A DNA stretch of 39,283 bases, taken from Candidatus Micrarchaeota archaeon. GTDB taxonomy: Archaea > Micrarchaeota > Micrarchaeia > Norongarragalinales > SBBD01. The stretch's first letter is position 1; each line of letters begins with the position of its first letter. Made by a program: the position numbers and the translations under genes. The DNA lies in the NCBI GenBank assembly GCA_043813365.1, contig JBDRLB010000046.1, positions 1 to 39,283 of the forward strand. The letters are read 5' to 3'. A model generated the notes under the pieces. That model saw only the letters and a list, made by a program, of their open reading frames with translations, was not told the DNA's origin and searched no databases. Shown here piece after piece: positions 1 to 33,816 of the stretch.

Positions 1-3000
1 AGCGGCGATTGCATCTGCACAATTACATTCCCGCTTGCTTGGGAGCCTTCGAATTCACAATCGGTCGTTACATTGAGCCTTATTGGCACGAGATTGGAAG
101 TGTTGTATTCGCTTCCATTTGCAGGAATGAGCAGCTCGTTCTTCAGCTGCCCGGTGACATTGACGGTGAAATTGGACGTCAGGGAACTGGTGTAATATGC
201 ATCGTTCTGGACGCCACCCTTCCACTTCTGGGGCATCGCCGCATAGGTGCAATCCGGATCGAAGTAATGGGCCAGATGCCCGGATGTGTTCGTAGTGACG
301 TTAATGGAAGGCGCATAATTCTCCCCATCCACAGTGATAAAGAAGGTGCCGTTGACTCCGTCATCCACGTAAAGCGAGCGCGTCTGGTCGTAAACCCGCA
401 GGACGAGCGGTATCGAATCGCTTCCCTCGCGGTCAACGAGGATGTTGGGGTCGGTTTCGATGTCGATGCTAACCGCATCCCTGTTGATTGTGAAAGCAAT
501 CGGGCTGGTGCTTGCATTGTACCCGTAAACGTCAGTTGCATTGAAGAAATATTCGCTGCCCCCCACATCAGTATTGTTGAACTCCTGGACGAACAGCAGC
601 TCCTGCGCATTGCATGGCCCGCAGGTTTGCTCCTGCAAGTAAGTCCAGTTGCCGCCCGATTTCCTCTTGAATAAGTAAACCGTGACGTTGTTGTCATCAA
701 GATCCGTCGTAGTGACGGTGAAATTGAATTGTGCGCCCCATCCCTCCGCGCCGGGGGTGACCGACGGGGAGCTTAGCTGCGGCCTGCTTGCAATGTAGAA
801 GCTGAGGTTTTGCATCGTCGAATAATTGGAATAGTAGCTCCTGCTGACATTGATGGTCACATTATACCACCCATATGCCCAGGTCGTTGTGGTGGTATTG
901 GCGATCGTGCAATTGTAGTAACCCTGCTGCTCATCGGTGCCCGTGCAGCTCACGCCATCAAGCGGCGACATCACTACTGTTGCTCCGGAAACCCTTCCGC
1001 ATCCTCCCGAATCGGTCACGTTTGCCCGGAGGTTTATGTTGTCAACTCCCTTGATGTAAGTGACATTCAACGGGGCCGAAAGCGTCGCATAAAATTCGGA
1101 TGTGATGGTCACGTTGAATTGCGTGGAGTTGGAAGGCTTGTACAATCCGGACTCGTTCAACAGGCCGGCTTTCCATTGCTGTATCCCAACGCCCGTATCG
1201 CAGCCCGGGTTGAAATTATAGTTGATGTAGCCGCTGCCGTTCGTATATACCTGCGCGCCCGTCCCGAATACGGAATTGTTCGTCCACCAGACATGCGCCT
1301 CCTCGCTTGCAACCTTGTTGGAAGGCTTGTCCGTATCCTCCACTTTTGTGATGAAGGTGGTGTAATTGGTGCCCAGCCTGCTTACGGTGCTGTAGTTGCC
1401 CGCATAATAGTCAACTCTCGTGTCATCGCGCTCTATTGAGAAATTATACTCGGAAGAGGTCGCATTCCAAACATCATCCTCGGTAGAATTGAACATTAAC
1501 GCCCAGTCTCCCAGGTCGGCTGAGGAAAATGTTTTCGTGAAATTGACGGATTGGTTTACTCCCTGTTTCGTGACCTGCTGCACGAAAGTATATTCCCCGA
1601 GCGATGGGGATAGTTGCCGGATGAATGCGTAAACCGTTATTGTGTCATTGTCCTCATCAGTGATGTTTGCCAGCAGCGTGAACGTCTCCCCCCAGCCGCC
1701 CACCTGCGGGATTGCAACCACCCCGTTGAATTCGGGCACGGTCTCCACCCATAGCCCCTGCAGATTCGGAACGTACTCGGCGTTCGAGGGTTCGATGTTG
1801 TGGTAGGGCTTCGAGGAATTCATCGTGATATTGTATGCGCCCGCCTTGTAGGAGGAGGTGTTGAGGTAGCAGGTGTAGTTTCCTGGCGAGGAGTTGGTTA
1901 CCCCGGAACAGAGATAAACCGTTAGCGAGTTGTTGTGCCTGATGGAAATGTTGACATTTGCATCTGCAACCGGGGCATTGCAATCATCAATCACGGTTGC
2001 ATTGATGGTGACATTGGCGCCTCTGAGCACCTCGGGGCCATAGGGGTAGGTGAAATTGTTGGTAAGCCCTCCCAATATGGTCGCGGTATAGTTAATAGTG
2101 TTGATGTCATAATAGCAGCTGTCGGAAATTCCGGCCATCCAATTCTGCGGCCCGGGCGAATAGCTGCATGAGGGATTGAAAAGCACTTCCAAATGCCCTG
2201 AAGAGTTGGTGGAGGTAGCATTTCCGTCATCAAAGTTCACGCCATCTGTTGTGATCCAAGTGATTCCGGATGCTGTTGGTGCATACCTCCCCCAGTCATC
2301 GTCATATGCTGAAATAATCAATGCAGTGCTATTGCCGCCGCTCCGGTTCACATAGGAGCCGTCCCCTGCAACCAGTGCAAGCGTAAGTGCATCCCGGGTT
2401 ACGTTGAAAAGCGGCCCAATTGAAGTATTGAAGGTGTTTGCAGGCTCGCCGTTGATTATTTGGAACATGAATTGCGATTCGTTGCTTATGTCGCCGCACT
2501 CAAAATGATCAACCGTGACGCTGCAGTTGCCCTGCCCCAAGGGAACGGCGCCATACCCGCGGTAAACCCATTCCCCGGTCGTATTCGTGAAGAGTTGGCA
2601 GGTGATGCTCTCGTCCTCGGGGTCATCTATGGTGACATTGAACTGGAAGCTGCTTCCCCAGCCGGCCTCTATTGTGCTTACGTTGAGATCCGATGCATTT
2701 GTTAGGAGGTTCTTGAGGTAAAACCAGTTCTGGTAGAGGGTTGAATTGGAATTGTAATACTCCGCAGTTGCGTTTATTGTGACGGAATAATTGCCCTGCA
2801 TGCTTTCCGAAGAGGGCCAAGTGCAGTTGTAGTAGCCGATGGTTTCGTTCTCAATCGGAGAGCAGTAGGTTAAGTCGCTCGTATCTTCATTTGTCAGGGT
2901 GATGTTTGTAACTGAGCCATTCAGGAACCCTTCCTCATCGATGCATTCGGAAGTGACGTTGAACCTCAACAGGATGTTGTTCGTAACATTGTATTCGTCC

Positions 3001-6000
3001 CAGCGGTTTGGAAGCTCAAGTCCCACTTGCGCCTGCCCGGTGACGTCGAACCCCGCTTCAGAGGAATTGGTGGTCTTGTAGCAAACGTCATTGAACACTC
3101 CCGCCCTCCAGTAATGCGATTCCGCCTTGTAGGTGCAGGAAGGGTTGAATAGCGCATTGATGTACCCAGAAGTGTTTGTCTGCGTGTGATTCCCCCCGTC
3201 ATAGCTGCCTCCGGATGTCGTCACCCAGATGGTGCCGTTTGCGCCCGAACTCACGAATACATTGCGGTCCAGATCGAAAATCCTGGAGGAGAGTGCGATT
3301 GCGGAATCCCCAACCCTGTAAACGGAAGTGCCATAAGTGTCCAATGAGAGGTTGATGTCGTCCTTCTGCAAGCTGAAAGTCGTTGTGGCGGTTTCGTTGC
3401 CGAAAGTATAGCATAAGTTTACAGTAGCATTGAACTTGTATTCCCAAGTGGCATTAGAAACGAGGTTGGAGCATGTGAAATATACGTCCGTGAACGTGAG
3501 GTTCCTTGCTTCCGAGCACGAGTCGCACATTTGCGATGCCCGGAGTATCCAGGCGGACGAGCCGCCCGCCCGCGCCCAGAGAGAAACGTTCACATCGCCT
3601 CCGGCAAGGTCAAGAACCGTAACATTGAAAGTGCGGTTTACCCCCCATCCTTCCGCTGGAATGTCGATGATCGGGTCATAAACCATTGGCACGGAGGAGA
3701 GCCTCAGTGCATGGATTGTCGTGTTGGAGCCGTTGTAGTAATCCGTTTTGGAGGAGTTCAGCGTCACGTTGTAGAGCCCGTAATTCCTCCCAATCGAATT
3801 CCAGACGCAGCTGTAATTGCCCTGATACACGTTGGTGGTTGAGCCGCAAGATGAGCCTGCTCCTGTTCCGACGGTGAACGCCACGACTGCCAAGGCAACT
3901 CCGGAACATTCATCCGCAACGGTTCCGTTGATTATTATCTGCTCCCCCGGAACATAGCAAGTGCCGTTAAGCGGCCGGGTGATGTTGTTGTTCAGCTGGT
4001 TTGTAATTACGGTGACATTGTAGACTGAGGAATTTGCCGTAAGGTAGCAATTTGTCTGCGGCACGCCGAATTTCCATTTCTGCAATCCAACTGCCGTAGT
4101 GCAGGTGGGGTCGAACCTGCGCGATGCAAGCCCGTTGATGGTGTTGTTTGTGCCATCAACCTGGTAGGTTGTGCCGTCCTTCGTCACGAAAAGGGTGGCA
4201 GTGACTCCGCTGGCAAGGTATTGCGTGGGATCGACCGAATCCACGAATCTCGTTGCGAGGAAAGTGGTGTTGGTTATGCGGTGCACAGAGCTTTCATTTC
4301 CCTGCTGATAAATGTCGATCAGATCCCTTCTAGTCAAATCGAAATTGCCAGTTGTTGTTTGCACGGTTTCCCCTGTCGAGTCCGTAGCATTGAATTTGAA
4401 CGTCCATGTGCCGAAATCGGTGCATGCACTGTGGGTGTCATCGGTGAAGGTCATGTTCTGGCCGGAGCAGTTGGTGCATATCTGCGTTTGGATCAGCACA
4501 TATTCGTCCCCCGAAGCGTTCTTTTCCCAAAGGTTGACGCTAACGACGTCGTCCTTGTCCGAAACAGTCACGTTGAAAAGGATTGTGCCTCCCCAGTAAA
4601 CAGAGCTCGTGTTTGCGAGCGGATTCGCGAGGGTCGGCGCCGTCTGCATGTGGAATGCATCATGTAGGACGGCGGTTTTGTTGCCATAGTAGAGCTTCGA
4701 GCCGTTCATTGTAACGAAATAATTGCCCCCGCTTAATGAGGTCGTGTTGAGTGAGCAGTTGTAAAATCCATCGCCTTCATCGTAAACTATCGGGCACAGC
4801 ACTGGCGCTGCGCCATCCTGAACGAGGAAGTTCACAGTTGCTCCTGAAACGAGGTTGCCGCAATCGTCAGTTAGATTGCCGCGGATCGTTACATTCTGCC
4901 CCGGAGTGACGTTTATCCCGTATGGCACGGAAATGTTGACGTTGAGCGCGCCGATGATGTTTATCGCATAATTGATTGTGCTGTTGGAATCGAAGAAGCA
5001 ACCATCCGAAGCGATCCCGCCCCTCCAAAGCTGGGTGCCTGCGCCATAGCTGCAGCTTGGCTTGAATGCGATGCTGAAATTCCCAGAGGAGTTTGTCCAG
5101 GAATAATTGCCATTGCCGAAGGACGCGCCATTCGTAGTGACCCAGATTGCGGCGCTTCCGTTGTAGGCCATGCTGCGGTTATCGGTGTCATAAGCGTAAA
5201 GGGAAAGCACGGTGCTTCCGTTGTTCCTTGTGACATTGGTGTTGTTGCCTGAAACGTAGTAAATCGAGACATTGTCCCTCTGGATGGTCCAGTTGCCCAC
5301 TTCCGAGCTCCCATTGGCATAAAGCTCATCGGTGCCGTTGAAGATGAAGAATTTCATTCCAATGTCGGAGCATGTGAAAGTGTGGTCAATAGTGAAATTA
5401 ATGATGTTCCCGAGGCAATTGGGGCATACGGTCTCGTTGATGTATGAAAACGGGCCGCTGCTTGCATTCCCGTTGGAAAGCGTCACGAGCACATTCTGGT
5501 TTTCGGCATCCCTTACGTATGCGGAAAAGTTGAGCTGCTCCCCCCATCCTGCAGGGTCGGGATATGCAGTGATGTTGAGAAGTATCGGCTCGGTATTAAT
5601 CGGTGAAAGCAGCCGGAATACGTTTGCTGCTGTTGTCGCATTCCCATTGTAGAATTCCTTGGTCGCATTTGCCCTGACATTGAAATACCCGGGTGCTAGG
5701 TCGCTGGTGTTCAGCGTGCACGAATAAGTCCCGTTGCTGTAATTGACGAGGTTTGCGCCTCCGCAATATGTGGTGTTGTAAAAGCCTATTGCCGTGAACC
5801 CGGCAGTGGCGTTCGCAACTATGTTGTTGCATTCGTCAGTGGTTGTAAGCGTGAATGTAACATTCTCCCCTATGACAACGTCGTTGCCTGTTCCGTTGCT
5901 CGTCGATATTGCAAACTGGAAGTCGCCGTAAACCTGCAGGACGTATTCTTTCGAAAGGTAATCCTTGTAGCACGTGTTGGAGGTCGTGAACGCGAACCAC

Positions 6001-7560
6001 TTCTGTATTCCAGCTGAGTTGTTGCATGTCGCATTGAAATAGAAATCGGCCGTGCCGCTTGCATTTGTCGTGTTCGACCCTTCGCTTTGGTTGGCAATGC
6101 CGTTTGTAGTGACATTGAAGTAAACTGTCGAATAGGGGTCGCCGGCCATCAGGTTGCGGTCCGTGTCTGTCACGTTTATAACGAGGCGCACATGCTGCTC
6201 TCCCGACCTGTTTGCAATAGTATTGTTGCCGCTAACGTGCGTGACAACTACGTCATCCTTCTCCACAACGGTCGAGTTTACTGCAGTTTCCGAATTGATC
6301 TGCTCGGTTGTGTTTGCAAGGTATTTGTAGAACCATGTTCCAACGTCGGAAGTGCCCGGCGGGTTCTCGCAGCTGAATGTCCTCGTCCAGTTGATCGTGT
6401 AATTCGCGCAATTTACGCCGACGCAGCTCTGTGCCGGGAGGGTTTCCAAGGTGAGCTGCACGGGATCGCTGACTGTTCCAAAATAAAGATGGCCGGTTAC
6501 GGGAACGTTGTAAACCGGTGCGGTCATGTTGACGGAATAATTGAATTGCCTGCCCCAGCCTTCGCTTAATGGTGCGGAGTGCCAGTCCGTAAGCTTTGCC
6601 TTTGCGAACAGGTAATAAAGGTACCACGGATCGGACCCTACTTTGGTGAAGAATGCGGGGTAGTATTTGCTGGCGGTCGCGTTCATGGTCACGTTATAGT
6701 ACCCGCCGAATTTGTTCGTTGTCTGCAGCGTGCATTCATAGAAACCGCCGCCCAGGCTTGTGCCTGCGCACGAGTAATGCGTGGTGTTGTCCGTGTGATT
6801 AAAGGTAACCTGGATAGTCGGATCCTCTAGGGGGGAGATGTAATTGCCGCAATCGTCCCGCACGTTCCCCTGATCAAGTATGGGCGCTGGCTCCGTGAAA
6901 TTCGTATCGCCTTTCGGGTTCGTGACGTTATTGTTCAGGAAGCCCTTCACCTGAAGGGCGTAAATGTCGGAGGAAATGTCATTGTAACAGCCGCTGCCAG
7001 CAAGGGTAGCCTTCCATTTCTGGTCGGGCCGCGATTGGTACTCTGTTGGGGAGCAGGTTGCATTGAAATAAAGGTTCGCATATCCGGAAGAATTCGTAGG
7101 GGTGAGGTTTGCCGGCCCGTAGGTGCTTCCATCCGTAGTGACGGAGAAATTAATCCCGAGGTCTCCGATGTAGGTGCCATTAGTATCGTTCACACGCATG
7201 CCGAGAAGCGCCAAATTCGACCCGCTCCTGTTGGAGAGCGAATTGTTCCCGAAAACCAGGTTGAATTGCAGCGTGTCCTTGCTTACTGTAAACACGGTCT
7301 GCAGGTTTACGGGCGTGGTATTGACGTTCCCATCGGTATCGTATGCGGTGAAATTATAGTAGGAGGAGCCGACTTCGTCGCAGGAGAATGATTGTGTGAA
7401 ATTTACAAGTGCCCATTGCCCCTGCGAAACAACATAAGTAGAGTTCAATACGGTCCAGTTGCTCGAGCCATCCAGGGAAGACGTAAGGTTGACGGTAAGG
7501 TTGTGGAAGTTCGAATAAACCATTACAGAAAAGTATTTCTTGAACCCAAAGCCGGAAGTG
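1..7560 (-). repeat. At least 8 degenerate tandem protein repeats of 316-337 aa within the giant ORF
   Basis: In-frame G[WF]G/YWG anchor motif, followed by an F-x-F-x-V-like strand, at 735, 1689, 2655, 3642, 4590, 5541, 6552 and 7545 (spacings 954, 966, 987, 948, 951, 1011, 993 bp). D[DE]C, W-x-T-x-[DN]G and F-x-P-x-C-x-Y-x-x-G-x-Q-x-W motifs recur in most units. Confidence 0.85.
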
Positions 7561-10500
7561 CCCGGAGTTACCGAATAGTTCTCGAATAGTGGGGTGTCAG
7601 TGCAAATCAGGTTGACGGAGTAGTTCTGGCCGTAATAGTTCGCGGTGCCGGATCCGTTCACTGCAGTGCCCTCGAAAATCTGCTGGTAATAGATGCCAAG
7701 GGGCGTCGTGAACGAGTAATTGTAGAAGGAGACGTTTGCAATGCCGGATTTGTTGAATGCGGTTGTGTTCCCCCATGTGATGAAATTTGTGCCAGTTTGC
7801 TTAGGAGTAGGGGTATAATTTGCCGTTGTGATGCTGGAAGGATGCAATTCAGTGACATTGAACGACCAAAGGTTCTGGTTGCCCTTGTTTAGCACTTTGA
7901 GGCTAGTGTTCAATGTCGTGCAACCAAGGCTGGTTGGGAACCCTTCCACCCAATCGCTTGCATCCGTATCGTAATAGCTGCGCACCATTTTCACATACGG
8001 GCCCTGCACTTGAGCTGCAAAATGGATGTCATCGTCCCTATATTGCAACGGAAGGGCGGAGTCAACATTTCCCCTTACGGATTGCCATATGTGCTTCCCT
8101 CCGGGAATGTAATCCGGAGAATCTGAAAGGTTGACATAAAAATCATACGTAAAAGTGCCGCCTCCTTCTGCAAGTTCACCAAAGCTCGCAAATTTTACGG
8201 TCCAGCCCTCTTCAACCGAGCCTATTGGGTAACCGGGAAGGGGGACTGCATTGGTGAAACTGAACGGCCTCTGGAAGCCCGGAGGCAAATATAGGTGGGG
8301 CAAAAGCATGCGTATGTTCGTGACACCTCCATTGCCCCCCCAGTTCCGCGTGTAGATGTAAATGTGGTTTGTTGCATTGCGCCTCAATGTGATATTGCCG
8401 GAGTAAACAGAGCCATCAGTTGATATGACCGTTGCAGGGGAGGGGTTGTCCCCGCTGTATTGCGTCAGCGTCCTGAACTCCTCCACTGCCTGTTGGTCGT
8501 TGTCCCATATTACCGTTTGTATGAAATTGAAGGAGCCGGGATTCTCATCCGCCCAGTAATACATCAATTGCCCGCTGTAGCATTCCGAAGGGCCAAGGAT
8601 GATATTATACCATTCGATAAGCCCTTCTGACACAAGGTCCGCTGCAGGGTAGGTGTTTGGGAGGTTGCTTGCCCTGCATGCATAAGAACCGGGGCACTCT
8701 TCGCGCAAAGTTGCATTGATGATTTGGTCCCCGTAGTTGCAAAAAGTGATAGTCTGATTCAGCCTTTCGTTCGCATCGGCATCAACCGTATCCGAAGTGT
8801 AATCGGTCATGGAAGTGTAAATTACAACGGGAGCGGGCTGGAGGGTAAAGGTATGCTCGAATTCCCTGCTGCCAGTAGCCCACGTAACGTTTATCTTTGC
8901 CTTGTACGTCAAGGCAACATCCGCGCTGTCGGGAATTTCAAGCCTGAATCGCACTACTTTCTCGGAAAAGCTGGGGTTGGTTCCGTTCGCGGATGCGGAA
9001 AAATTGACCATTTTGGAATTGCCGTCCCTGAACCACCAGTTCTGGAGGGTTGTTCCTTGGTAAATGTTTACGGTCACATTCGTGTTGTTGATTGAATTGA
9101 CCTTGTAATTGAACAAGGGGACGGTGATCGTATTTGTAGAGCCTGCGATTAGCACGTCCTTCGTCCCATCTGGTCCTTTTACGGCTATGTCCCTGTTCGC
9201 CAGCCCGATGTCCGTGCAGTTCTGGATGTTGATCGCTTTCCTGTTGCTTAAATACAGTACTACTCCGTTGCGCTGGATCATGTACGCCCGCAGGTTGTAG
9301 GAGCCAACAGCGTTTGGCGTGTGGAAATAATACAGTGTGTTCTGGGAACCATACCGCGGGTCGGCACATTGTGCAGCAGCATTACCATCGCAGTCGCAAA
9401 GATACATTGTGTGTGGGTTCGAATCGCCGTTGAAGAAGGTGAAGCCGTTCGAGGGGAGGTTGACGAAGGTGATTCCCGGCGACGATTGCAAATAAGTTGG
9501 TTCGCTCGTGTCTGCAGAGGAGTGGAGATTTATGATGGTCAGGTTTAAAGTGTAATTCTGGTTGGCGCAAAGGGTAAGCGGATCCCAAGGGTAAGGGCTG
9601 GATCCGACTGTTGCGGTCATATTGTGGTAGAAACTGAAATCGAGAATGAAGCCCCAGTCATCAACTGCAACGCTCCATGAACGGCCTTCGGTGAAATTCC
9701 CATCCGAATGGAAAATTTTTGCGGGCCCGAAGAGGTATTCACGGGGGTATACTTCAGGGGGAAGGAAAGTATATTCAAGAAGGCGTGTTTCCCCGGCAGC
9801 CATGTTTCCCAGTTCCCATGTGATGATTTTCGTGTCGTTGGTTTCAGTGTAATTGAGTGAGGAGGGATATAACGTAAGGTTGGACGAGACCGGCTCGAGG
9901 AATATAGCATCCGTGACCGCACGCTTTGCAATAACCATTATATGCATTTTTTCAGCATCGGGGTACATTACAGTGGGGGCAGTTCGGATGATGTCGAAAT
10001 CATAATTGCTGAGAACTGAAAAGCCCGTGGAGGAATCTGCATCCACATCAAAACGGATTGCGAATGCATGAACCGAGTACGTGCCTACTTCGTTCACAGG
10101 GTAAATGAGGCTGTAGGAGCCGTCTGAATTGTCTATTATGTCGCCAGCCATTGTTGAGAATGTGCGGATGCTCCCGGAAGGCGAAGTGATGATTGCAGTA
10201 ACATTCGCCGAATCGATGCGGTAGCCTTCGTTCGCAAGCACCCCAATGGTGATGTTTGCCGTTTCTCCGGGAGAATAGATGCCCTTATCGGAATTGATGT
10301 TAACAAGGCCGAGGGCGAAGCCATCCTCCTCGCCTTCGTCCGCGATGTCCTCGATGACTTCTTCCCGGACAATCCTTGTCCTGGGAGCGGAAGCAGGAGG
10401 AACGTCGCCGCCCGCACTGCTTTCTGAACCGGAGGATTCGGAAGCTGCTTTCCCATTCGCAGTCATGCCGGGATCTTCGGTTTCATCGATTGGGACTTCG

Positions 10501-12572
10501 CGCTCTACGATGGATCTTTTCTGGAAATTCGCAACGAGCTTCAGGTAGTAGTAGCCGGGCCGCAGCGCCCTTGTTGCAGGAAGCCGGAATTCCTTCTCGT
10601 TCCCGAAATCCCGCAAGGATACCTCCGTTTCATTGCCATCCGGCGCAACAAGGAACACGCGGAACCTTCCGCTTTCTATGAGGCGGTTCTCATCGTCCTG
10701 GAAGGTCATCCGGAAGACTATTTCCTCCCCAATTTTGTAGGATTTCTTCTTCCCGAACGAGAGCACTCGGAATTTGGTCGGCTTTTTCCTCAATTTGGAG
10801 GCGTTAAACTCGGTCATGTTCAGCTCCGTAAAATTGAGGTCGGTCGCATTGAGCTCGGATTCGTTTAATGATTCATTCGAAGGTTCGTTGATGATTGAGG
10901 TGAGGTTTGCCAGCAGGAAGGTTGATTCGTTGATGAAGAAGAGCGGCTCGGAATACTCCGTGTAGTTTGTAAGGTTCAGTATGAGGGAATGGAAGCCGAT
11001 TGTGAGGTTCGTGATGTTTGCAGGCGTCTGGTTGCGGTATTCGCCATCAATGAAAATATCGGCAAGGGAGGGGGAGGACTCGATGAACAATGTTCCGTTT
11101 GTTTCGTTTCCGGTTTGGTTCAGTTCGCTTATTGCGATGATAGTTCCCGTTGCATTGGAGCCGTTGAGGAAGGCGTTTTCGTCCCGGGGGAAAATTGCAG
11201 TAAGGTTGTAAGTTCCTTCCGAAAGGTTAAGTGTGAAGTTTGCTGAGCCGTTTCCATCCGTAATGGAGGACGCATATGCAACGGAATTCACCTCCAACTC
11301 AATTTGCATGCTTTCAATCGGGGAGCCATCCGATTGTTTGGAAAGCAATGCATGGATTCCAAAATTCTTATTTGCAGGGTAGAAAGCATTTGCCATCAAA
11401 TTCAACTGCGTCAATTGGAAGATGCCGTTCTGGGGTTCGGGGGAAGGCGAGACGGTTGCGTTTATGGAGGGAGAGGGGGAAATGGTCGCATTGATGGAAG
11501 GTTCTGGCGAGGCGGATGCACTGGGGGAAGCGGTGGCATTGATTGAAGGCTCGGGTAAAACGGTCGGTTCGATTGTGGCAGTAGGAGTCGGAGTTATGGA
11601 ACCGGCTGGGGAAGGTGAAATGGAGGGAGTGGGCATCGGGGAGGGAAGTTCGGAGGGAGTTGGGGAGAAAGTTGGAGTGGGCATCGGGGAAATGTTCGGG
11701 GAGGGCATTATTGTGGGGGAAGGCGAAATTTCAGTTGTGGGGGAAGGAGTGGAGCTGGAGGTTGGGGAAGGTGAAATCGAAGGGGTAGGCATGGGGGAGG
11801 GGGTATCTGAAGGCGTAGGTGAAAAAGTGGGAGTGGGCATCGGGGAAACCTGCGGCGAGGGAGAGGTGTTTGGCGAAGGTACCGGCGAAGGGGACGCGAC
11901 ATCTGTTGGAGTCGGGATAATTGAAACGCTGGGAAGAATGGTTGGGGAAGGAAGAACGGAAGCATCAGGGGTAGCTGTTGGGGAAATCGATGGTTCGGGA
12001 GTTGATGTCGGGAATATTGAAGGATCGGCTGTTGGGGAAGGCAGCATGGAAGGCTCCGCAGTTGTTGTGGGGGTTGGCAAATCAGTAGGAATATTGGTCG
12101 GCGAGGGAGTAAACGAATCTATTGGAATATCTGATGCCGAAGGAATTGCAGTTGGCGTAGGGATGAATGATGCTAAAATTGTCGGCAAAATATCCTCAGT
12201 CGGTGAAACGCTTGCGGAAGGCGAGGGTGCCGGAATTGGCGTAGCGGTCTGGTTGTCAATGAACCCAGCATCCAAAAGCAGCCCTCCCCCAAAGCCAAGG
12301 AAGCCTTGGAAAATCACTCCCATGAAGGAAAGCGCAAAAAGCGCGAGCATCGGGAACCCCATTGAGAATTGGGACCGCTGCCCTCCCTTGGATTTCAAAA
12401 TGGAGGTCTTTTCATCCGCCTTGTCGTCCGGCTTTATTTCCTTCAAAACCAGGTTGCCTTTCTCATCTGGGTACGGATAGAGCTCCACGCCTTTATCCCA
12501 TCCCATCAACGCCACAACGTCCTTAGGAATGGTTATGGTAAACTGGTCTCGTTTACGCTGGATAACAACCAT
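1..12572 (-). CDS. Giant (>=4190 aa, 3'-truncated by window edge) membrane-anchored surface glycoprotein with N-terminal AbrB/SpoVT-like domain, P/S/T stalk, PEGA domain, Ig/MG2-like modules and tandem ~325-aa repeats
   Basis: ATG at 12572-12570, preceded by GGGGCTTGTGAG. Manual translation gives MVVIQRKRDQFTITIPKDVVALMGWDKG..., and the same frame is open at the window edge (...NVTTDCEFEGSQASGNVIVQMQSP). None of the listed minus-strand ORFs in 1-12572 is in this frame, as expected for one stop-free ORF. Very rich in N-x-S/T sequons. PEGA-like GTLFIESSPSLADIFIDGEYRNQTP at about 11020-11100. Confidence 0.92.
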   Translation of the reverse strand, partial: MVVIQRKRDQFTITIPKDVVALMGWDKGVELYPYPDEKGNLVLKEIKPDDKADEKTSILKSKGGQRSQFSMGFPMLALFALSFMGVIFQGFLGFGGGLLLDAGFIDNQTATPIPAPSPSASVSPTEDILPTILASFIPTPTAIPSASDIPIDSFTPSPTNIPTDLPTPTTTAEPSMLPSPTADPSIFPTSTPEPSISPTATPDASVLPSPTILPSVSIIPTPTDVASPSPVPSPNTSPSPQVSPMPTPTFSPTPSDTPSPMPTPSISPSPTSSSTPSPTTEISPSPTIMPSPNISPMPTPTFSPTPSELPSPMPTPSISPSPAGSITPTPTATIEPTVLPEPSINATASPSASASPEPSINATISPSPSINATVSPSPEPQNGIFQLTQLNLMANAFYPANKNFGIHALLSKQSDGSPIESMQIELEVNSVAYASSITDGNGSANFTLNLSEGTYNLTAIFPRDENAFLNGSNATGTIIAISELNQTGNETNGTLFIESSPSLADIFIDGEYRNQTPANITNLTIGFHSLILNLTNYTEYSEPLFFINESTFLLANLTSIINEPSNESLNESELNATDLNFTELNMTEFNASKLRKKPTKFRVLSFGKKKSYKIGEEIVFRMTFQDDENRLIESGRFRVFLVAPDGNETEVSLRDFGNEKEFRLPATRALRPGYYYLKLVANFQKRSIVEREVPIDETEDPGMTANGKAASESSGSESSAGGDVPPASAPRTRIVREEVIEDIADEGEEDGFALGLVNINSDKGIYSPGETANITIGVLANEGYRIDSANVTAIITSPSGSIRTFSTMAGDIIDNSDGSYSLIYPVNEVGTYSVHAFAIRFDVDADSSTGFSVLSNYDFDIIRTAPTVMYPDAEKMHIMVIAKRAVTDAIFLEPVSSNLTLYPSSLNYTETNDTKIITWELGNMAAGETRLLEYTFLPPEVYPREYLFGPAKIFHSDGNFTEGRSWSVAVDDWGFILDFSFYHNMTATVGSSPYPWDPLTLCANQNYTLNLTIINLHSSADTSEPTYLQSSPGITFVNLPSNGFTFFNGDSNPHTMYLCDCDGNAAAQCADPRYGSQNTLYYFHTPNAVGSYNLRAYMIQRNGVVLYLSNRKAINIQNCTDIGLANRDIAVKGPDGTKDVLIAGSTNTITVPLFNYKVNSINNTNVTVNIYQGTTLQNWWFRDGNSKMVNFSASANGTNPSFSEKVVRFRLEIPDSADVALTYKAKINVTWATGSREFEHTFTLQPAPVVIYTSMTDYTSDTVDADANERLNQTITFCNYGDQIINATLREECPGSYACRASNLPNTYPAADLVSEGLIEWYNIILGPSECYSGQLMYYWADENPGSFNFIQTVIWDNDQQAVEEFRTLTQYSGDNPSPATVISTDGSVYSGNITLRRNATNHIYIYTRNWGGNGGVTNIRMLLPHLYLPPGFQRPFSFTNAVPLPGYPIGSVEEGWTVKFASFGELAEGGGTFTYDFYVNLSDSPDYIPGGKHIWQSVRGNVDSALPLQYRDDDIHFAAQVQGPYVKMVRSYYDTDASDWVEGFPTSLGCTTLNTSLKVLNKGNQNLWSFNVTELHPSSITTANYTPTPKQTGTNFITWGNTTAFNKSGIANVSFYNYSFTTPLGIYYQQIFEGTAVNGSGTANYYGQNYSVNLICTDTPLFENYSVTPGTSGFGFKKYFSVMVYSNFHNLTVNLTSSLDGSSNWTVLNSTYVVSQGQWALVNFTQSFSCDEVGSSYYNFTAYDTDGNVNTTPVNLQTVFTVSKDTLQFNLVFGNNSLSNRSGSNLALLGMRVNDTNGTYIGDLGINFSVTTDGSTYGPANLTPTNSSGYANLYFNATCSPTEYQSRPDQKWKATLAGSGCYNDISSDIYALQVKGFLNNNVTNPKGDTNFTEPAPILDQGNVRDDCGNYISPLEDPTIQVTFNHTDNTTHYSCAGTSLGGGFYECTLQTTNKFGGYYNVTMNATASKYYPAFFTKVGSDPWYLYYLFAKAKLTDWHSAPLSEGWGRQFNYSVNMTAPVYNVPVTGHLYFGTVSDPVQLTLETLPAQSCVGVNCANYTINWTRTFSCENPPGTSDVGTWFYKYLANTTEQINSETAVNSTVVEKDDVVVTHVSGNNTIANRSGEQHVRLVINVTDTDRNLMAGDPYSTVYFNVTTNGIANQSEGSNTTNASGTADFYFNATCNNSAGIQKWFAFTTSNTCYKDYLSKEYVLQVYGDFQFAISTSNGTGNDVVIGENVTFTLTTTDECNNIVANATAGFTAIGFYNTTYCGGANLVNYSNGTYSCTLNTSDLAPGYFNVRANATKEFYNGNATTAANVFRLLSPINTEPILLNITAYPDPAGWGEQLNFSAYVRDAENQNVLVTLSNGNASSGPFSYINETVCPNCLGNIINFTIDHTFTCSDIGMKFFIFNGTDELYANGSSEVGNWTIQRDNVSIYYVSGNNTNVTRNNGSTVLSLYAYDTDNRSMAYNGSAAIWVTTNGASFGNGNYSWTNSSGNFSIAFKPSCSYGAGTQLWRGGIASDGCFFDSNSTINYAINIIGALNVNISVPYGINVTPGQNVTIRGNLTDDCGNLVSGATVNFLVQDGAAPVLCPIVYDEGDGFYNCSLNTTSLSGGNYFVTMNGSKLYYGNKTAVLHDAFHMQTAPTLANPLANTSSVYWGGTILFNVTVSDKDDVVSVNLWEKNASGDEYVLIQTQICTNCSGQNMTFTDDTHSACTDFGTWTFKFNATDSTGETVQTTTGNFDLTRRDLIDIYQQGNESSVHRITNTTFLATRFVDSVDPTQYLASGVTATLFVTKDGTTYQVDGTNNTINGLASRRFDPTCTTAVGLQKWKFGVPQTNCYLTANSSVYNVTVITNQLNNNITRPLNGTCYVPGEQIIINGTVADECSGVALAVVAFTVGTGAGSSCGSTTNVYQGNYSCVWNSIGRNYGLYNVTLNSSKTDYYNGSNTTIHALRLSSVPMVYDPIIDIPAEGWGVNRTFNVTVLDLAGGDVNVSLWARAGGSSAWILRASQMCDSCSEARNLTFTDVYFTCSNLVSNATWEYKFNATVNLCYTFGNETATTTFSLQKDDINLSLDTYGTSVYRVGDSAIALSSRIFDLDRNVFVSSGANGTIWVTTSGGSYDGGNHTQTNTSGYINALFNPSCTYKAESHYWRAGVFNDVCYKTTNSSEAGFDVTGQAQVGLELPNRWDEYNVTNNILLRFNVTSECIDEEGFLNGSVTNITLTNEDTSDLTYCSPIENETIGYYNCTWPSSESMQGNYSVTINATAEYYNSNSTLYQNWFYLKNLLTNASDLNVSTIEAGWGSSFQFNVTIDDPEDESITCQLFTNTTGEWVYRGYGAVPLGQGNCSVTVDHFECGDISNESQFMFQIINGEPANTFNTSIGPLFNVTRDALTLALVAGDGSYVNRSGGNSTALIISAYDDDWGRYAPTASGITWITTDGVNFDDGNATSTNSSGHLEVLFNPSCSYSPGPQNWMAGISDSCYYDINTINYTATILGGLTNNFTYPYGPEVLRGANVTINATVIDDCNAPVADANVNISIRHNNSLTVYLCSGVTNSSPGNYTCYLNTSSYKAGAYNITMNSSKPYHNIEPSNAEYVPNLQGLWVETVPEFNGVVAIPQVGGWGETFTLLANITDEDNDTITVYAFIRQLSPSLGEYTFVQQVTKQGVNQSVNFTKTFSSADLGDWALMFNSTEDDVWNATSSEYNFSIERDDTRVDYYAGNYSTVSRLGTNYTTFITKVEDTDKPSNKVASEEAHVWWTNNSVFGTGAQVYTNGSGYINYNFNPGCDTGVGIQQWKAGLLNESGLYKPSNSTQFNVTITSEFYATLSAPLNVTYIKGVDNINLRANVTDSGGCGRVSGATVVMSPLDGVSCTGTDEQQGYYNCTIANTTTTTWAYGWYNVTINVSRSYYSNYSTMQNLSFYIASRPQLSSPSVTPGAEGWGAQFNFTVTTTDLDDNNVTVYLFKRKSGGNWTYLQEQTCGPCNAQELLFVQEFNNTDVGGSEYFFNATDVYGYNASTSPIAFTINRDAVSIDIETDPNILVDREGSDSIPLVLRVYDQTRSLYVDDGVNGTFFITVDGENYAPSINVTTNTSGHLAHYFDPDCTYAAMPQKWKGGVQNDAYYTSSLTSNFTVNVTGQLKNELLIPANGSEYNTSNLVPIRLNVTTDCEFEGSQASGNVIVQMQSP
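11430..12260 (-). repeat. Pro/Ser/Thr-rich low-complexity stalk (~270 aa) with an internal 156-bp duplication
   Basis: Translation SPSPMPTPTFSPTPS...; GGGGAAGGTGAAAT...GGAGTGGGCATCGGGGAAA occurs at 11608 and at 11764. Confidence 0.85.
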
Positions 12573-13016: not shown

Positions 13017-13622
13017 ATGAGAAAAACGAGGATGGTGTTCGGAGCAGCTGCTGTGCTGCTACTTCTTGGGATAATAAACCAAGTGGTAGGCGGTGCGGTA
13101 GTATCCGATAACACCAACGTAGCTGTCCCTGCTGACAACGGGACATCTACGCTATTGAACGTGACAACAAGAATGCAGCAATACGTCGGCTTCTTCGGGA
13201 ACGTCACAGCAGAAGTCAGGCTGAACGTGACCGTGAATTCCGGCACGCTCTACAGGAAGGACGTAGACCGGGGGAAGATATACTTCTTCGACACCGGCGC
13301 AACCCCGACAATGCCATTCGTGCCTGCATTGAACAACTCGGAAACGGACGGGAACTTCTCGCTGACCGGGTTCTATGTCACAGGAAACCACTTCATATAC
13401 AACAATACGGTATGTGGTGTTGTTTCGGTTGATCACCTGAACACAAGTGACAACTACATGGTCGGCATATTCAGGGATGCGGCAGCAGCGCCGAATTACT
13501 TCATATGCACGGATATCCGACCGGTATCCTCAAGTACCGGATTCGGGGCAGTAGAGTTCCAAGCCGTTGTGCCCAAGACCGGGCTGTATATGGCATATGA
13601 TGTGTGGATAGACTTCGAGTGA
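13017..13622 (+). CDS. Secreted beta-rich hypothetical protein (201 aa)
   Basis: Basic-hydrophobic signal peptide MRKTRMVFGAAAVLLLLGII; multiple sequons; two Cys; QYVGFFGNV motif; aromatic C-terminal strand YDVWIDFE; T-tract downstream. Confidence 0.85.
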   Translation: MRKTRMVFGAAAVLLLLGIINQVVGGAVVSDNTNVAVPADNGTSTLLNVTTRMQQYVGFFGNVTAEVRLNVTVNSGTLYRKDVDRGKIYFFDTGATPTMPFVPALNNSETDGNFSLTGFYVTGNHFIYNNTVCGVVSVDHLNTSDNYMVGIFRDAAAAPNYFICTDIRPVSSSTGFGAVEFQAVVPKTGLYMAYDVWIDFE

Positions 13623-13877: not shown

Positions 13878-14897
13878 TTATGCTGACTCCTCCTCCTTCT
13901 GCTCCACCAGCCGCAGTTTTGCAAGGAGCTTCCGGATCTTCGGCATGTCCTCCTCGGCTATTTTTTTCGGGGAGCGCAGCCGGTAATAGATCGCTACTGC
14001 AAGCGCGATGATGCATACAGCAGCTGCAATATAAATGAAAATCGGGGGGAACAGGGGCGGCCGGCGGTTGATGTTGCTCTTTATCGAATCCGCTTTGAGG
14101 CTTATGAGCACAAATGATTCTGGCGAAGGCATTTCCCCTATAGCCAAATCCTTCTCGTAATTGGAGAGCTGGTATTCGAGCACCATGAGATCGCGGGATT
14201 GCTGCGTAAGCCATTCATCCTGCTCCCCATAATGCTTTTGCGCTGCCTTTAGGGCAACGGTAGCGTTAATGAAAACTGCTGCAGCCGGGTAATAGTAGGG
14301 CATGATCCTATCGTAACGCATGAACAGGTCCCTGAGCCCTGCATCCTTCAAATCAAAAGATTCGGAGAGCTTATCTATGGATGCTTGTGACTTCACCCGC
14401 CTGAGGTTGAGGAGGTTGCTTTCCATATTGGAAAGATCCCCATCGACTTTCACGAATTCAACTTCCCGGAACTGTCTTGTCTTGATGATGAAATCCTGGC
14501 GTATCGCCTTAAGCTCCGTGAGGGAGCCTTCCCTTTCGAATGCGGCCCGCTTGCCGTTCGCCTCGATGAGGCGCGGTTCCAGTTGGGTGATAATGGAAAT
14601 TGCGGAGAAGTTGAGCCCGAGCGTCTCGTTGTCACAGCCCCGGTAGCCCCTCCGTATGTATTCCCCGATCACATCCTCAACCATAGTTGGAGGAACGGGG
14701 TAAAGGTCGTCCTTCTCCTCCAGCAAAACCGAGGGGATGCAGTTGATGAATATCAAGTAAAACGAAGAGTTGAGTGCATAGAAATTTGCAACAGTATGGT
14801 TCTCGTTCTGCCTTATATAAAGCGAAATCTGGTCTTCGGTTGTAAGCGCCAAAACGGATGTTGCGAGCAAAAAAACAAAAACGAGGAGTTTCATCAT
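13878..14897 (-). CDS. Single-pass membrane protein with signal peptide, helical/coiled-coil ectodomain and charged cytoplasmic tail
   Basis: MMKLLVFVFLLATSVLA signal (alternative TTG start at 14921); heptad-like helical region; C-terminal TM IFIYIAAAVCIIALAVAIYY followed by RLRSPKK... Confidence 0.8.
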   Translation of the reverse strand: MMKLLVFVFLLATSVLALTTEDQISLYIRQNENHTVANFYALNSSFYLIFINCIPSVLLEEKDDLYPVPPTMVEDVIGEYIRRGYRGCDNETLGLNFSAISIITQLEPRLIEANGKRAAFEREGSLTELKAIRQDFIIKTRQFREVEFVKVDGDLSNMESNLLNLRRVKSQASIDKLSESFDLKDAGLRDLFMRYDRIMPYYYPAAAVFINATVALKAAQKHYGEQDEWLTQQSRDLMVLEYQLSNYEKDLAIGEMPSPESFVLISLKADSIKSNINRRPPLFPPIFIYIAAAVCIIALAVAIYYRLRSPKKIAEEDMPKIRKLLAKLRLVEQKEEESA

Positions 14898-14948
14898 GAA
14901 GAGGGTAAGTGCATCGGGCAAGAAAAAGGTTTGCCCCCATAAGTTACT

Positions 14949-15755
14949 TCAATCCAAGGAGGGGTAATTGATCACCCTTCTCCAGATCGAGAGGGCGCTT
15001 TCCTTGATGGAGTCGATTGCATTCAATTTCACTATCCTCTGCACCGGCAGGCCTGCGATGTGGCGGGCGACGTTCAGCAGTTCCTTCGAGGCGGGCGCGT
15101 CCGGGAATGCAAGAACAGCTGGAACCTCTGCTGCAAGCGCGCGCGGAATGGTGCTGTCTCTAGGAATGGAAGCAATTATTTGGAGGGAAAGCATCTTCTG
15201 TATCTGGTCGGCCGACATCTGGGATTCGTTCTTCTGCACCATGTTGAGCACCAGCCCGAGGTGCTTCTTGTCCTTCTCCCGGAGGAATTCCACGTACCGC
15301 AGCACATCCATTATGGAAGGCAGCGTTGGCGTTGCAACAAAAACCACTTCCTCCGAGGAGTTGAGCGCTGAGAGCGCCTCCCTTCCAAGCCCCGGGCCAG
15401 CATCGAGTATCACAAAATCATTGCTCTCGGCGAGTTTCCTTATAAGGGGCCGTAATTTTGTCAGGTCCACCCCTTCCATCTCATGCAGGTTCAATGATGC
15501 CGGAAGGATCCTGAGCCCCGAGGAATGCGCATACACCGCCTCCTCAAGTGGCATTTCCCCCCGCAAAACATGGTTGAGTGCAACCGGTGCGTGGTGCATG
15601 CCAGCTGCTATTCCCAGGTGGGAGGTTGTGATGTTGCAATCAACAACGGTGATTTTTTTTGCGAAATGCTTTGCAAGGCACACGCCTGCATTCAGCACAA
15701 CTGTCGTTTTCCCAACACCGCCCTTGCCAGAAACAACAGAAACTATCCTGCCCAT
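14949..15755 (-). CDS. minD: MinD/ParA-family P-loop ATPase
   Basis: Deviant Walker A SGKGGVGKTT, VVDCNI, ILDAGPG switch motif, LVLN; GAGGAGGGG RBS upstream. Confidence 0.9.
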   Translation of the reverse strand: MGRIVSVVSGKGGVGKTTVVLNAGVCLAKHFAKKITVVDCNITTSHLGIAAGMHHAPVALNHVLRGEMPLEEAVYAHSSGLRILPASLNLHEMEGVDLTKLRPLIRKLAESNDFVILDAGPGLGREALSALNSSEEVVFVATPTLPSIMDVLRYVEFLREKDKKHLGLVLNMVQKNESQMSADQIQKMLSLQIIASIPRDSTIPRALAAEVPAVLAFPDAPASKELLNVARHIAGLPVQRIVKLNAIDSIKESALSIWRRVINYPSLD

Positions 15756-22053: not shown

Positions 22054-22227
22054 GCGGCTCCGATAAAATGCGGCGCGGGTCCGCAATTGTTTTCCTGAAA
22101 AAATTGCCTTCTGTTCCGGCGGGTTGAGAATTCCCTTCCGTTTAGGCTTATCTTCCTTCCCGCAATCAGTTAGGTATAAATACGGAAATGCGCATAACTC
22201 TTCTTTCGTTTTTCGGGGTGCGGTAAT

Positions 22228-24453: not shown

Positions 24454-25398
24454 ATGAAGAACGACTTGTATGCGCCGCGGCCTTCCCCTTGGAATAACAT
24501 ATTCAAATTCCTAGGCATATTGATGCTCCTGTTTTTGATTGTGGGAATATTCGCGCCTGCACCGGAGGGGGATTGCATCGCTCACATTAAAATTGCCGGG
24601 GAAATCACTTACGATGAAACGGGCTCCATACTTGGCGGAGGCGTTGCGAACACCCCTGAAGAAATAAGTTCCCTGCTCGATGATGCGGAAAGTGACGCGA
24701 AAGTGAAGGTGATTTTGCTGGAGGTCAATTCGCCCGGAGGCTCGGCTGTTGCAAGCAAGGAGATTTTCGACAGGGTAAGGGAGCTTGGAAAGCCGAACAT
24801 GGTTTACATGACTGAGGTGGCCGCTTCCGGAGGCTATTATGTGAGTGCCGCAAGCGATTACATCATTGCAAACCCCAATACGCTCACGGGCTCGATTGGC
24901 GCAAGGGGCTCCTTCATGAATTACGAGGACCTTTTCTCGAAGCTGGGGCTGCGGGAGGAGGTAATCAAGAGCGGCGCATTGAAGGATATCGGCTCCGGAT
25001 CGAGGAACCTCACGGAAAAGGAGAAGATAATTTTGCAGGGGCTCATAGATGAGACATTCGCAACTTTCAAGAAGGACGTGGAGGCAGGAAGGGATGGGAA
25101 AATAAATTTCGGCGTTTACAACGAGTATTTGGATGCGCGCATACTTACCGCATCTCAGGCAAAACGCGCCGGCCTGATTGATGAGATCGGGGGAATGAAA
25201 CGCGTCATTGAAAAGGCTAACCAGATGGCCGGCATCAATGTCACGGATGGAAGTGCACCCCTTCCCTTATGCGATTTCGAGCCTAAAGGCGGACTTAACT
25301 TATTCACGGACCTGGGAAGCAGCTTCGGGAAAAGCATTGCTGATGGGCTGATGAAGGGGATTTCAGAGAAGCAGGAAGTGCAGCTGAATTACAAATAA
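24454..25398 (+). CDS. sppA: Signal peptide peptidase SppA (S49, 36K type)
   Basis: N-terminal TM; NSPGGS, AASGGYY, TGSIG, KSGxxKD and GLIDEIG motifs. Confidence 0.95.
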   Translation: MKNDLYAPRPSPWNNIFKFLGILMLLFLIVGIFAPAPEGDCIAHIKIAGEITYDETGSILGGGVANTPEEISSLLDDAESDAKVKVILLEVNSPGGSAVASKEIFDRVRELGKPNMVYMTEVAASGGYYVSAASDYIIANPNTLTGSIGARGSFMNYEDLFSKLGLREEVIKSGALKDIGSGSRNLTEKEKIILQGLIDETFATFKKDVEAGRDGKINFGVYNEYLDARILTASQAKRAGLIDEIGGMKRVIEKANQMAGINVTDGSAPLPLCDFEPKGGLNLFTDLGSSFGKSIADGLMKGISEKQEVQLNYK

Positions 25399-32155: not shown

Positions 32156-32213
32156 AAAAGTCGCCCAAATGGGGAATATTGACCCGGCACCATCCACCCG
32201 GAAATTGCCCATT

Positions 32214-32894: not shown

Positions 32895-32900
32895 GCATAA

Positions 32901-33314: not shown

Positions 33315-33351
33315 AAATAACACCACAAACATATTGGATTTGAGTTGACAA

Positions 33352-33810: not shown

Positions 33811-33816
33811 GAAAAT

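Follow-up and report, generated by a model that had tools for sequence, protein, structure and literature searches.

A giant gene at the edge of a Micrarchaeota contig, probably encoding the N-terminal part of a SPEARE-type envelope protein

The giant gene and its product

The stretch of DNA analysed here, referred to as the window, comprises 39,283 nucleotides from a Candidatus Micrarchaeota archaeon (GenBank assembly GCA_043813365.1, contig JBDRLB010000046.1), and its left end is occupied by part of one giant gene. This gene lies on the minus strand, starts with an ATG at 12572-12570 and runs off the left edge of the window; we refer to its open-ended product, residues 1-4190, as P0001. The SPEARE proteins of nanohaloarchaea are giants of up to 8,553 residues, mostly extracytoplasmic and equipped with adhesion-type domains (Hamm et al., 2019; PMC6642349). 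In our judgement P0001 is probably the N-terminal part of an envelope protein of this type, in which a contact fibre would be combined with ATP-driven transport.

An original prediction, made from the sequence alone, had proposed that one minus frame is open from 12572 to the window edge over at least 4190 residues, and this was exactly what translation gave. There is no stop in the 4190 codons, whereas the other five frames of 1..12572 contain 72, 118, 160, 165 and 290 stops, and the long minus frame is therefore not a product of chance. It was absent from the ordinary list of open reading frames (ORFs) because those that run off the source sequence are omitted by default. Similarly, the public protein set's own model for this contig, P0002 (3895 residues), begins only at residue 296, so that the first domains have been missed in the public annotation. 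Codon usage in the giant gene matches that of the housekeeping genes in the window (relative synonymous codon usage, r=0.92, against 0.25 for a shifted frame), as does the G+C content at third codon positions (0.63 and 0.60, respectively). This is a real gene, native to its Micrarchaeota genome. The archaeal host proposed earlier also stands: the CTP synthase of the window is 80-86% identical to Candidatus Micrarchaeota proteins, the nearest relatives of P0001 are Micrarchaeota giants, and the fibrillarin, TrmB and SecD/SecF genes present are consistent with an archaeon. On these comparisons P0001 is, like the SPEARE proteins, of DPANN archaeal origin.

The features of the gene are as follows.

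3..12572, minus strand: giant gene, 4190 codons, open at the left edge of the window
12429..12572, minus strand: SpoVT/AbrB-like (MazE_antitoxin) domain, predicted cytoplasmic (residues 1-48; Pfam match at 11-48)
12369..12428, minus strand: charged linker ending K/K/R, ahead of the helix (residues 49-68)
12270..12368, minus strand: hydrophobic membrane segment, a signal anchor or a very long signal peptide (residues 69-101)
11373..12269, minus strand: Pro/Ser/Thr-rich low-complexity stalk (residues 102-400; composition per 200 residues)
10065..11345, minus strand: four beta-sandwich-type domains and one linker (residues 410-836; Pfam)
Residues 412-458: MG4/Big-like beta-sandwich (Pfam, weak, below cut-off)
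Residues 493-542: PEGA (Pfam, 33.3 bits, above cut-off)
Residues 608-694: A2M_BRD/DUF4785-like (Pfam, weak, below cut-off)
Residues 701-755: acidic linker between the A2M_BRD/DUF4785-like and MG2/Filamin domains
Residues 761-836: MG2/Filamin (Pfam, 50.2 bits, above cut-off)
7596..10055, minus strand: conserved non-repeat 'head' without family assignment, predicted all-beta (residues 840-1659, 820 residues)
3..7595, minus strand: eight Y-Z-X repeat units of about 322 residues each (residues 1660-4190), starting at residues 1660, 1991, 2327, 2644, 2960, 3291, 3611 and 3929

Thus Pfam and the comparison of repeats essentially reproduce the domain order that had been read from the sequence, including a membrane helix preceded by an AbrB-like domain and at least eight repeats; the eighth is cut in its third domain by the window edge. 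The dense N-glycosylation sequons were also borne out, as P0001 contains 229 N-x-S/T sites (x not P) against 76 +/- 8 in shuffled sequences. None of them falls within residues 1-68. As a control, the cytoplasmic CTP synthase has 2 sequons where 2.2 are expected. The composition of P0001 is acidic (D+E 392 vs K+R 198) and its first cysteine does not occur before residue 1002. Searches of NCBIfam with P0001, and of the PDB with its sequence, returned 0 families and 0 hits, respectively.

The membrane segment has its best Kyte-Doolittle 19-mer (1.93) at residues 69-87, within a hydrophobic stretch extending to about residue 101, and is flanked by K/K/R ahead of helix 69-87 and by acidic residues after it. 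In the relative P0020, 137 of 137 sequons precede the last 350 residues. From the charge flanks and the sequon distribution together it follows that the helix is probably oriented with its N-terminus inside, which would place the AbrB-like domain in the cytoplasm and the rest of the chain outside the cell. The window also contains, at 24454-25398 on the plus strand and 12 kb away from the giant gene, a gene for an S49 (SppA-type) signal-peptide peptidase, whose only bearing is on a speculative release of the AbrB-helix stub after export.

The assignment of the first domain depends largely on homologues. Residues 11-48 match PF04014 at E=0.005 (17.2 bits; cut-off 24.7). An exhaustive HMMER search with residues 1-110 (E<=0.001) recovered 21 proteins, among which PF04014 was found in 11 at E<=0.01, with six above the cut-off. 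Through these homologues P0001 is, transitively, homologous to bona fide PF04014 members. Residues 1-48 align with small archaeal AbrB-type proteins in both single and tandem forms; P0001 differs from these small swapped-hairpin proteins by the fusion of its AbrB-like domain to a membrane helix and a giant ectodomain. The order AbrB-like domain, linker, helix and Pro/Ser/Thr-rich region is common to P0142 (a 3,486-residue fragment) and to P0143 and P0144 (short fragments), in all of which the membrane segment is conserved, and among the 21 hits the fusion with an ectodomain is restricted to the clade of these three. Most of the remaining homologues are 47-118 residues long, and two are longer (226 and 1,039 residues). 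The fusion, as judged by alignment, is conserved and known from four sequences including P0001. The linker differs in length among these four by in-frame indels, and the fusion is therefore translated rather than an artefact. Between P0001 and P0142 the AbrB part is the best conserved segment (81% identity, compared with 39-65% elsewhere).

The eight units hold eight Y, eight Z and seven X domains plus one X cut by the edge (23 complete and one partial domain) and are only 23-35% identical to each other. At the DNA level, a Tandem Repeats Finder scan of 13 kb detected a single array, of 24-bp repeats at 11626-11690, in the Pro/Ser/Thr stalk. The structure prediction that had been proposed domain by domain was carried out for the repeat and the head. 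Unit 5 was modelled with AlphaFold2 on an alignment of 90 units, taken from both the window and its relatives, and came out as three beta-sandwiches (predicted local distance difference test, pLDDT, 95.6). Foldseek related this model to tandem MG and immunoglobulin (Ig)-like arrays, including complement C3/C4/C5, MpIBP, SiiE, titin and phage Hoc; TM-scores were low because the inter-domain angles differ. The Ig families of Pfam fit few of the 90 units (Big_7 nine, Big_1 seven and Invasin_D3 five). P0001 is thus a very long, mostly extracytoplasmic tandem chain of Ig-like domains, as SPEARE proteins are. As a rule of thumb an Ig-like domain contributes about 4 nm, at which the repeats inside the window would span roughly 100 nm.

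Like P0001, the bacterial giants SiiE (2yn3, 2yn5) and MpIBP (5irb) are long strings of beta-sandwiches, and the fold matches are strong (E about 5e-10 to 5e-9). However, the likeness is one of fold only, as there are no PDB sequence hits and no RTX family in Pfam for the first 4190 residues. SiiE and MpIBP are rigidified by calcium, whereas P0001 carries N-glycosylation sequons instead and is an archaeal protein without a type 1 secretion signal or an outer membrane. We considered membership among the bacterial RTX/BIg giant adhesins and rejected it, as there is no sequence homology; the C-terminus of P0001 lies outside the window.

The head is not a diverged repeat. Pfam gave nothing meaningful for residues 840-1659 at up to E<=10, and hhalign comparisons of the head with the three repeat-domain profiles and with itself reached probabilities of at most 5.4%, so that it is unrelated to the repeats and has no internal repeat. 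It is nevertheless conserved, at 27-45%, in P0003, P0004, P0012, P0010, P0142 and P0163. An AlphaFold2 model built from five sequences is of low confidence (pLDDT 49.4) and contains strands only, with no helix; its Foldseek matches (PrgB Ig-like domains and bacterial A2M, query TM-scores <=0.24) are too weak for a family assignment. Two language-model (Atlas) look-ups returned a weak DUF11/CARDB lead (score 0.91) with recognition values of 1717 and 1880, below 2300, and 171 and 163 shared features. The head is thus predicted to be all-beta, with no recognised enzyme fold. An alpha-2-macroglobulin or complement thioester protein was also considered and rejected: MG2 is above its cut-off and A2M_BRD is weak, but C[GL]EQ does not occur anywhere in P0001.

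Relatives and the sequence beyond the window edge

A word-indexed search with residues 400-4190 of P0001 returned 18 non-self hits, all of them giant (2,558-6,938 residues) and, where named, from Micrarchaeota, Parvarchaeota, Aenigmarchaeota and Anstonellales. Three relatives are collinear with P0001 over most of its length: P0003 (residues 737-4172 against 302-3738; 46% identity, 3483 columns), P0004 (705-4189 against 479-3986; 42%, 3549 columns) and P0142 (1-3478 against 1-3485; 49%, 3572 columns). Past the point that corresponds to the window edge, P0003 continues for 1,612 residues and P0004 for 2,952. PF01935, the HerA central domain, is present in seven of the 18 hits. Seven relatives have in common a C-terminal region of 2,700 residues (39-45% identity) that ends in a helix, Walker A, Walker B and a coiled coil. 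In relatives the non-repeat C-terminal base measures 2,076-2,390 residues. The original prediction had expected any C-terminal tip or effector domain outside the window. This part was not supported in that form: what the collinear relatives show there is more repeats, the base, a membrane helix, a HerA-type ATPase and a coiled coil.

The two halves of the plan can be followed most closely on contig L001, which represents the closest sequenced relative. Here P0003 ends at a 100-N scaffold gap (positions 4088-4187), beyond which, on the same strand, a stretch of 2,481 residues holds eight more units. Two in-frame TAA codons follow at 11633-11641, and then, in the same frame as that stretch, comes P0020 with the ATPase. 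Summed over its pieces, this locus encodes at least 10,588 residues and at least 23 units. The TAA codons are three codons apart (TL-stop-D-stop-C), at a place where, in the consensus of the repeats, a conserved cysteine is preceded by acidic or hydroxyl residues; the double TAA could be a sequencing error, decay or something else. A second pair consists of P0004, whose N-terminus is intact and whose C-terminus is cut, and P0011, whose ORF is open at the start of a contig of 1,302,862 bases. The contig of P0004 has the same length, and P0004 stops about 75 residues earlier in the repeat phase. These two may form one gene, which would then encode at least 12,174 residues and at least 26 units.

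By analogy with its collinear relatives, the gene of P0001 would continue beyond the window for some 6,400-8,000 residues, with 15-18 further units and then the base. The full-length protein is likely, on this alignment, to have about 11,000-12,000 residues, of which the window most likely holds some 35-40%. Since the collinear relatives continue into repeats, base and ATPase, the C-terminus is most likely back at the cell's own membrane and not a free tip. A candidate overlap between P0001 and the 6,637-residue ORF of contig L002 was rejected, as the matches (about 30%) are at the level of paralogues only. The L002 contig also carries a CTP synthase that is 80% identical to the one in the window.

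To describe the C-terminal module we scanned archaeal species genomes with the alignment of the relatives' C-termini; at least 587 stretches were matched and at least 537 confirmed, and 80 loci were kept. A DPANN label is carried by 40 of the 42 lineage-labelled loci, which comprise Aenigmatarchaeota (28), Micrarchaeota (six), Nanoarchaeia (two) and one each from Haiyanarchaeum, Woesearchaeota, Nanohalarchaeota, Altiarchaeota, Heimdallarchaeota and Methanosarcinales. ORF length was counted at the 72 loci with motif and stop, where it is measurable up to 6,631 residues owing to the flanks taken. In 63 of the 72 the ORF reaches the 5' end of the available DNA, and at 11 loci it is uninterrupted over at least 6,631 residues and ends in the ATPase. 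These uninterrupted ORFs indicate that the fused repeat-ATPase architecture is real. Furthermore, the loci found through the ATPase module contain 169 full-length Y-Z-X units; by this sequence comparison the ectodomain of P0001 is homologous to proteins that carry the module.

Over the last 410 or so residues of 46 loci, columns are on average 68% identical, compared with 26% for the repeat unit. A hydrophobic 19-mer (Kyte-Doolittle >=1.6) lies upstream of Walker A in 45 of the 46 modules. The P-loop is GTGSGKS, Walker B is hhhhDE, and a coiled coil follows; the module is short, with about 290 residues after a VFDPT motif. Pfam matched DUF87 in all 46 modules, HerA_C in 44, T4SS-DNA_transf in 36, FtsK (FtsK_SpoIIIE) in 14 and ResIII in six. 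A profile search of the PDB placed HerA (4d2i) first (E=7e-11), with seven more HerA-type entries, and FtsK at E 0.3-0.7; NCBIfam gave weak matches to CedD, TraC, TraB and HerA (CedD 22.9 against a cut-off of 600). By profile comparison, the motor of the family thus resembles HerA/FtsK and not a restriction enzyme. A tree built from the 46 modules unites four rows labelled Micrarchaeota and one unlabelled row in one clade (support 100/100), and the Nanohalarchaeota-labelled row L020 nests inside the tree. Two labels stand apart. L040 (Heimdallarchaeota label, on a 3.5-kb contig) takes a basal position relative to a group whose rows are unlabelled or carry DPANN labels, and L080 (Methanosarcinales label) is an atypical locus with 563 residues after the motif; mis-binning is possible for both.

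Directly downstream of the ATPase-bearing gene, on the same strand, a K/E-rich coiled-coil gene (median 606 residues) is found at each of the 68 loci for which 1.5 kb or more of sequence was available, a count that rests on BLAST clustering and may be inflated by compositional bias. In 12 downstream genes scanned with Pfam, no family scored above cut-off.

Neighbouring genes

The other genes of interest in the window are listed here.

13017-13622, plus strand: small secreted sequon-rich protein, upstream of the giant gene
13878-14921, minus strand: 347-residue membrane protein (signal, C-terminal helix), upstream of the giant gene
14949-15755, minus strand: archaeal MinD-type ATPase (TIGR01969, 210 bits against a cut-off of 201.75)
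15835-22086, minus strand: second large surface glycoprotein, 2083 residues, with an N-terminal signal peptide, four NPCBM_assoc and two MG2 domains
22228-23826: CTP synthase
28334-29017, minus strand: secreted protein of 227 residues with about five copies of G-[KR]-Y-A-Y-F-[GW] and no Pfam family
31076-34473, minus strand: riboflavin operon (RibD, GTP cyclohydrolase II, two lumazine-synthase-family genes and DHBP synthase)

The second large surface glycoprotein has 115 sequons where 34 +/- 5 are expected, a C-terminal membrane helix and a short coiled-coil tail that is SHOCT-like by eye. It is 29% identical over 300 residues to the membrane-proximal base of P0020, and a role in an S-layer or as a stalk is possible for it. 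Scanning the window for tRNAs and Rfam families gave no matches, and a sigma-70 promoter scan was uninformative, its model being unsuited to archaea.

The original prediction had also called the host episymbiotic. This is plausible for the phylum, and the riboflavin operon and CTP synthase of the window bear on the label: they amount to more cofactor and nucleotide biosynthesis than is usual in reduced DPANN genomes. Some orders of Micrarchaeota have been argued to be less dependent on hosts (PMC12892359).

Comparison with known systems and interpretation

Nanohaloarchaeal SPEARE proteins have a C-terminal helix followed by a highly conserved cytoplasmic part that was read as a type III restriction domain, and similar sequences were stated for Woesearchaeota, Aenigmarchaeota, Micrarchaeota and Altiarchaeales (PMC6642349). 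The relatives of P0001 likewise have a C-terminal membrane helix and a conserved cytoplasmic part, and six of the 46 modules also match ResIII, which is the label given there. Two further giants, SVXNc_0300 (9,409 residues) and BNXNv_0298 (8,880 residues), were described as 'giant membrane-anchored extracellular proteins', the former with a signal, N-terminal non-repeat domains, about 75 Ig-like domains, a membrane helix, an ATPase and a coiled coil; in the same study the cytoplasmic part is reinterpreted as a VirB4/TraG-like ATPase, and a secretion 'straw' is suggested (PMC10266531). The plan of the window and its relatives combined agrees with that of these two proteins. Since the reconstructed plan is the same as the published one, the kind of protein is already known; what P0001 adds is an AbrB-like N-terminus, a head not characterised before and, in all likelihood, its total length. 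In the available literature, including PMC12892359, PMC8784108, PMC8975820, PMC6349945 and PMC11573180, we found no AbrB-helix N-terminus, no account of a best match to HerA, of a coiled-coil neighbour or of a lack of laminin-G and propellers, and for the family in Micrarchaeota nothing beyond one sentence of PMC6642349, the supplement of which (Fig. S17, Table S3) lay outside the search and may list such sequences.

There are also differences from the described proteins. SVXNc_0300 and BNXNv_0298 carry two WD40-like propellers near the N-terminus, whereas P0001 has a head predicted to be all-beta, and no propellers were seen in its 4190 residues. The ATPase called VirB4/TraG-like in SVXNc_0300 corresponds to a module that scores best as HerA in the relatives of P0001. 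As in HerA (4d2i), VirD4/TraG, FtsK and the Ced pumps (the archaeal Ced DNA-import ATPase is described in PMC9905601 and PMC11868833), a single helix precedes the P-loop module, but in the relatives the module is short, fused to a giant ectodomain and far below the NCBIfam thresholds. The Micrarchaeota relatives also appear longer than SVXNc_0300, at the lengths given above as sums over pieces.

We propose the following arrangement. Within the window, the AbrB-like domain (48 residues) and the charged linker stay in the cytoplasm and one helix crosses the membrane. Outside, the chain is very rich in sequons and passes through the stalk, the four beta-sandwich-type domains and the head into the Ig-like units. 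At the far end, as judged from the relatives, would stand the conserved base, a second membrane helix, a cytoplasmic ATPase of the HerA/FtsK superfamily and a coiled-coil tail. By analogy, the Ig-like chain may act as a long, flexible, sugar-coated fibre that reaches out and binds another cell or surface. Members of the FtsK/HerA superfamily are ring pumps, and the ATPase would probably form a ring that drives DNA or protein transport across the archaeon's own membrane at the site of contact. As the AbrB fold works as a dimer, the AbrB-like domain might either pair N-terminal ends at the membrane or be a membrane-tethered regulator.

Whether the protein has one foot or two would depend on the fate of the N-terminal helix. 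If the helix is retained it would be a second anchor, with the ectodomain forming a giant loop; if it is cut, the product would be a fibre with the head at its far tip. The Pro/Ser/Thr stalk beside the helix and the conserved cytoplasmic domain favour the two-footed loop. The plain N-terminal hydrophobic signals with which the relatives P0004, P0007, P0008 and P0012 begin favour a cut helix and a head at the tip.

Several observations weigh against our interpretation. The PF04014 score of P0001 itself lies under the curated cut-off, and a PDB profile search with the AbrB part gave only non-significant matches to SpoVT (E=0.7) and C56 (E=1.2). Described SPEARE proteins have a Sec signal peptide (PMC10266531) and at least one laminin-G domain (PMC6642349). 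In P0001 an AbrB-like domain and a helix take the place of the plain signal peptide, the hydrophobic segment 69-101, which may be a signal anchor or a very long signal peptide, sitting behind a 68-residue cytoplasmic domain; laminin-G was not detected in its 4190 residues (E<=0.1), nor Laminin_G at E<=0.001 in the five relatives scanned. Pfam likewise showed no serine-protease-like or toxin-like region in the 4190 residues. In nanohaloarchaea a VirB4/TraG ATPase gene is reported to adjoin the giant gene (PMC10266531), whereas the neighbour in the relatives of P0001 is a coiled-coil gene free of P-loops: G..G.GK[ST] occurs in the next gene at none of 61 loci (same-strand ORF of at least 450 residues within 2 kb). 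The C-terminal module lies outside the window and an exact 50-base search for the window edge in the contig collection gave no match, so its presence in P0001 is inferred. The join of P0004 to P0011 relies only on equal contig size and repeat phase. Support for function consists of sequences and models, with adhesion, transport and glycosylation deduced from them for P0001.

A further difficulty is that no uninterrupted ORF among the sequences analysed carries both head and ATPase, L001 being broken by its gap and two stops. A search with the 820-residue head for proteins joining the two, covering only the range of 1,436-4,100 residues, returned one fragment (P0163), and the head was not found in the 80 ATPase loci. 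This leaves room for the alternative that survives best, namely that P0001 belongs to an adhesin anchored at its N-terminus and free at its C-terminal tip. The gene would then be a shorter paralogue lacking the ATPase, and its product would terminate outside the cell. The only anchor within the window itself is N-terminal and adjoins a Pro/Ser/Thr stalk, and such a pair is the usual membrane-proximal arrangement. Furthermore, a 3,315-residue 'reversed' SPEARE with its membrane helix near the N-terminus has been reported (PMC6642349). However, the locus tag of this SG9 protein adjoins another SPEARE gene, and it may be half of a split gene; P0003 and P0004 both pass the window-edge point, and the contig of P0003 leads, on the same strand, into the ATPase-bearing part. 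We therefore regard a free-tip adhesin as unlikely.

A further proposal takes the giant fibre as a transmembrane signalling device. Cleavage of the helix, whether by signal peptidase and signal-peptide peptidase as the protein is exported or in response to contact or tension, would free the tethered AbrB-type domain into the cytoplasm. Export or host contact would in this way be coupled to a transcriptional switch, while a HerA-type ring at the other end moves DNA or protein; uncut, the protein would be a two-ended loop. If the proposal is true, this uncut form would have one foot that dimerises and another that carries the hexamerising motor, and it could cross-link into a lattice. We consider this proposal quite unlikely.

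It is distinctly improbable, in our view, that the protein is a passive glycoprotein coat or spacer, S-layer-like or mucin-like, with no role in contact or transport. The extreme sequon density, acidic composition and monotonous Ig-like repeats would suit one, as would the second large sequon-rich surface protein 3 kb away; Micrarchaeota with a glycosylated S-layer have been described (preprint 10.1101/2021.04.28.441871). However, a coat would require neither an ATPase conserved at 68% column identity across phyla nor a cytoplasmic AbrB-like domain conserved at 81% identity. So large a gene is also costly in a Micrarchaeota genome of about 1 Mb; the contig of one relative alone measures 1.3 Mb. 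Finally, although L001 has its gap and two stops and repeats invite assembly errors, a decaying or mis-assembled gene from which no full-length protein is made is barely credible, since the 4190 window codons are clean, divergent units and a single 24-bp array in 13 kb leave an assembler little to collapse, eleven other genomes keep intact ORFs of at least 6,631 residues, and a nanohaloarchaeal SPEARE protein has been detected by proteomics (PMC6642349).

SPEARE-type giants are the leading candidates for the machines with which DPANN archaea hold on to other cells and draw material from them, a process still in need of explanation. P0001 offers a Micrarchaeota version whose N-terminal part can be read cleanly, including its stalk, its conserved head and repeats whose three domains are modelled with high confidence, and it belongs to a family that is very widespread, with the confirmed loci among archaeal species genomes numbering at least 537. 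At about 11,000-12,000 residues its relatives would exceed the 9,409-residue protein that has been called the largest of any cultivated archaeon (PMC10266531). The AbrB-like N-terminus, moreover, makes the question of whether such a giant has one anchor or two, and whether its N-terminal end is structural or signalling, directly testable.

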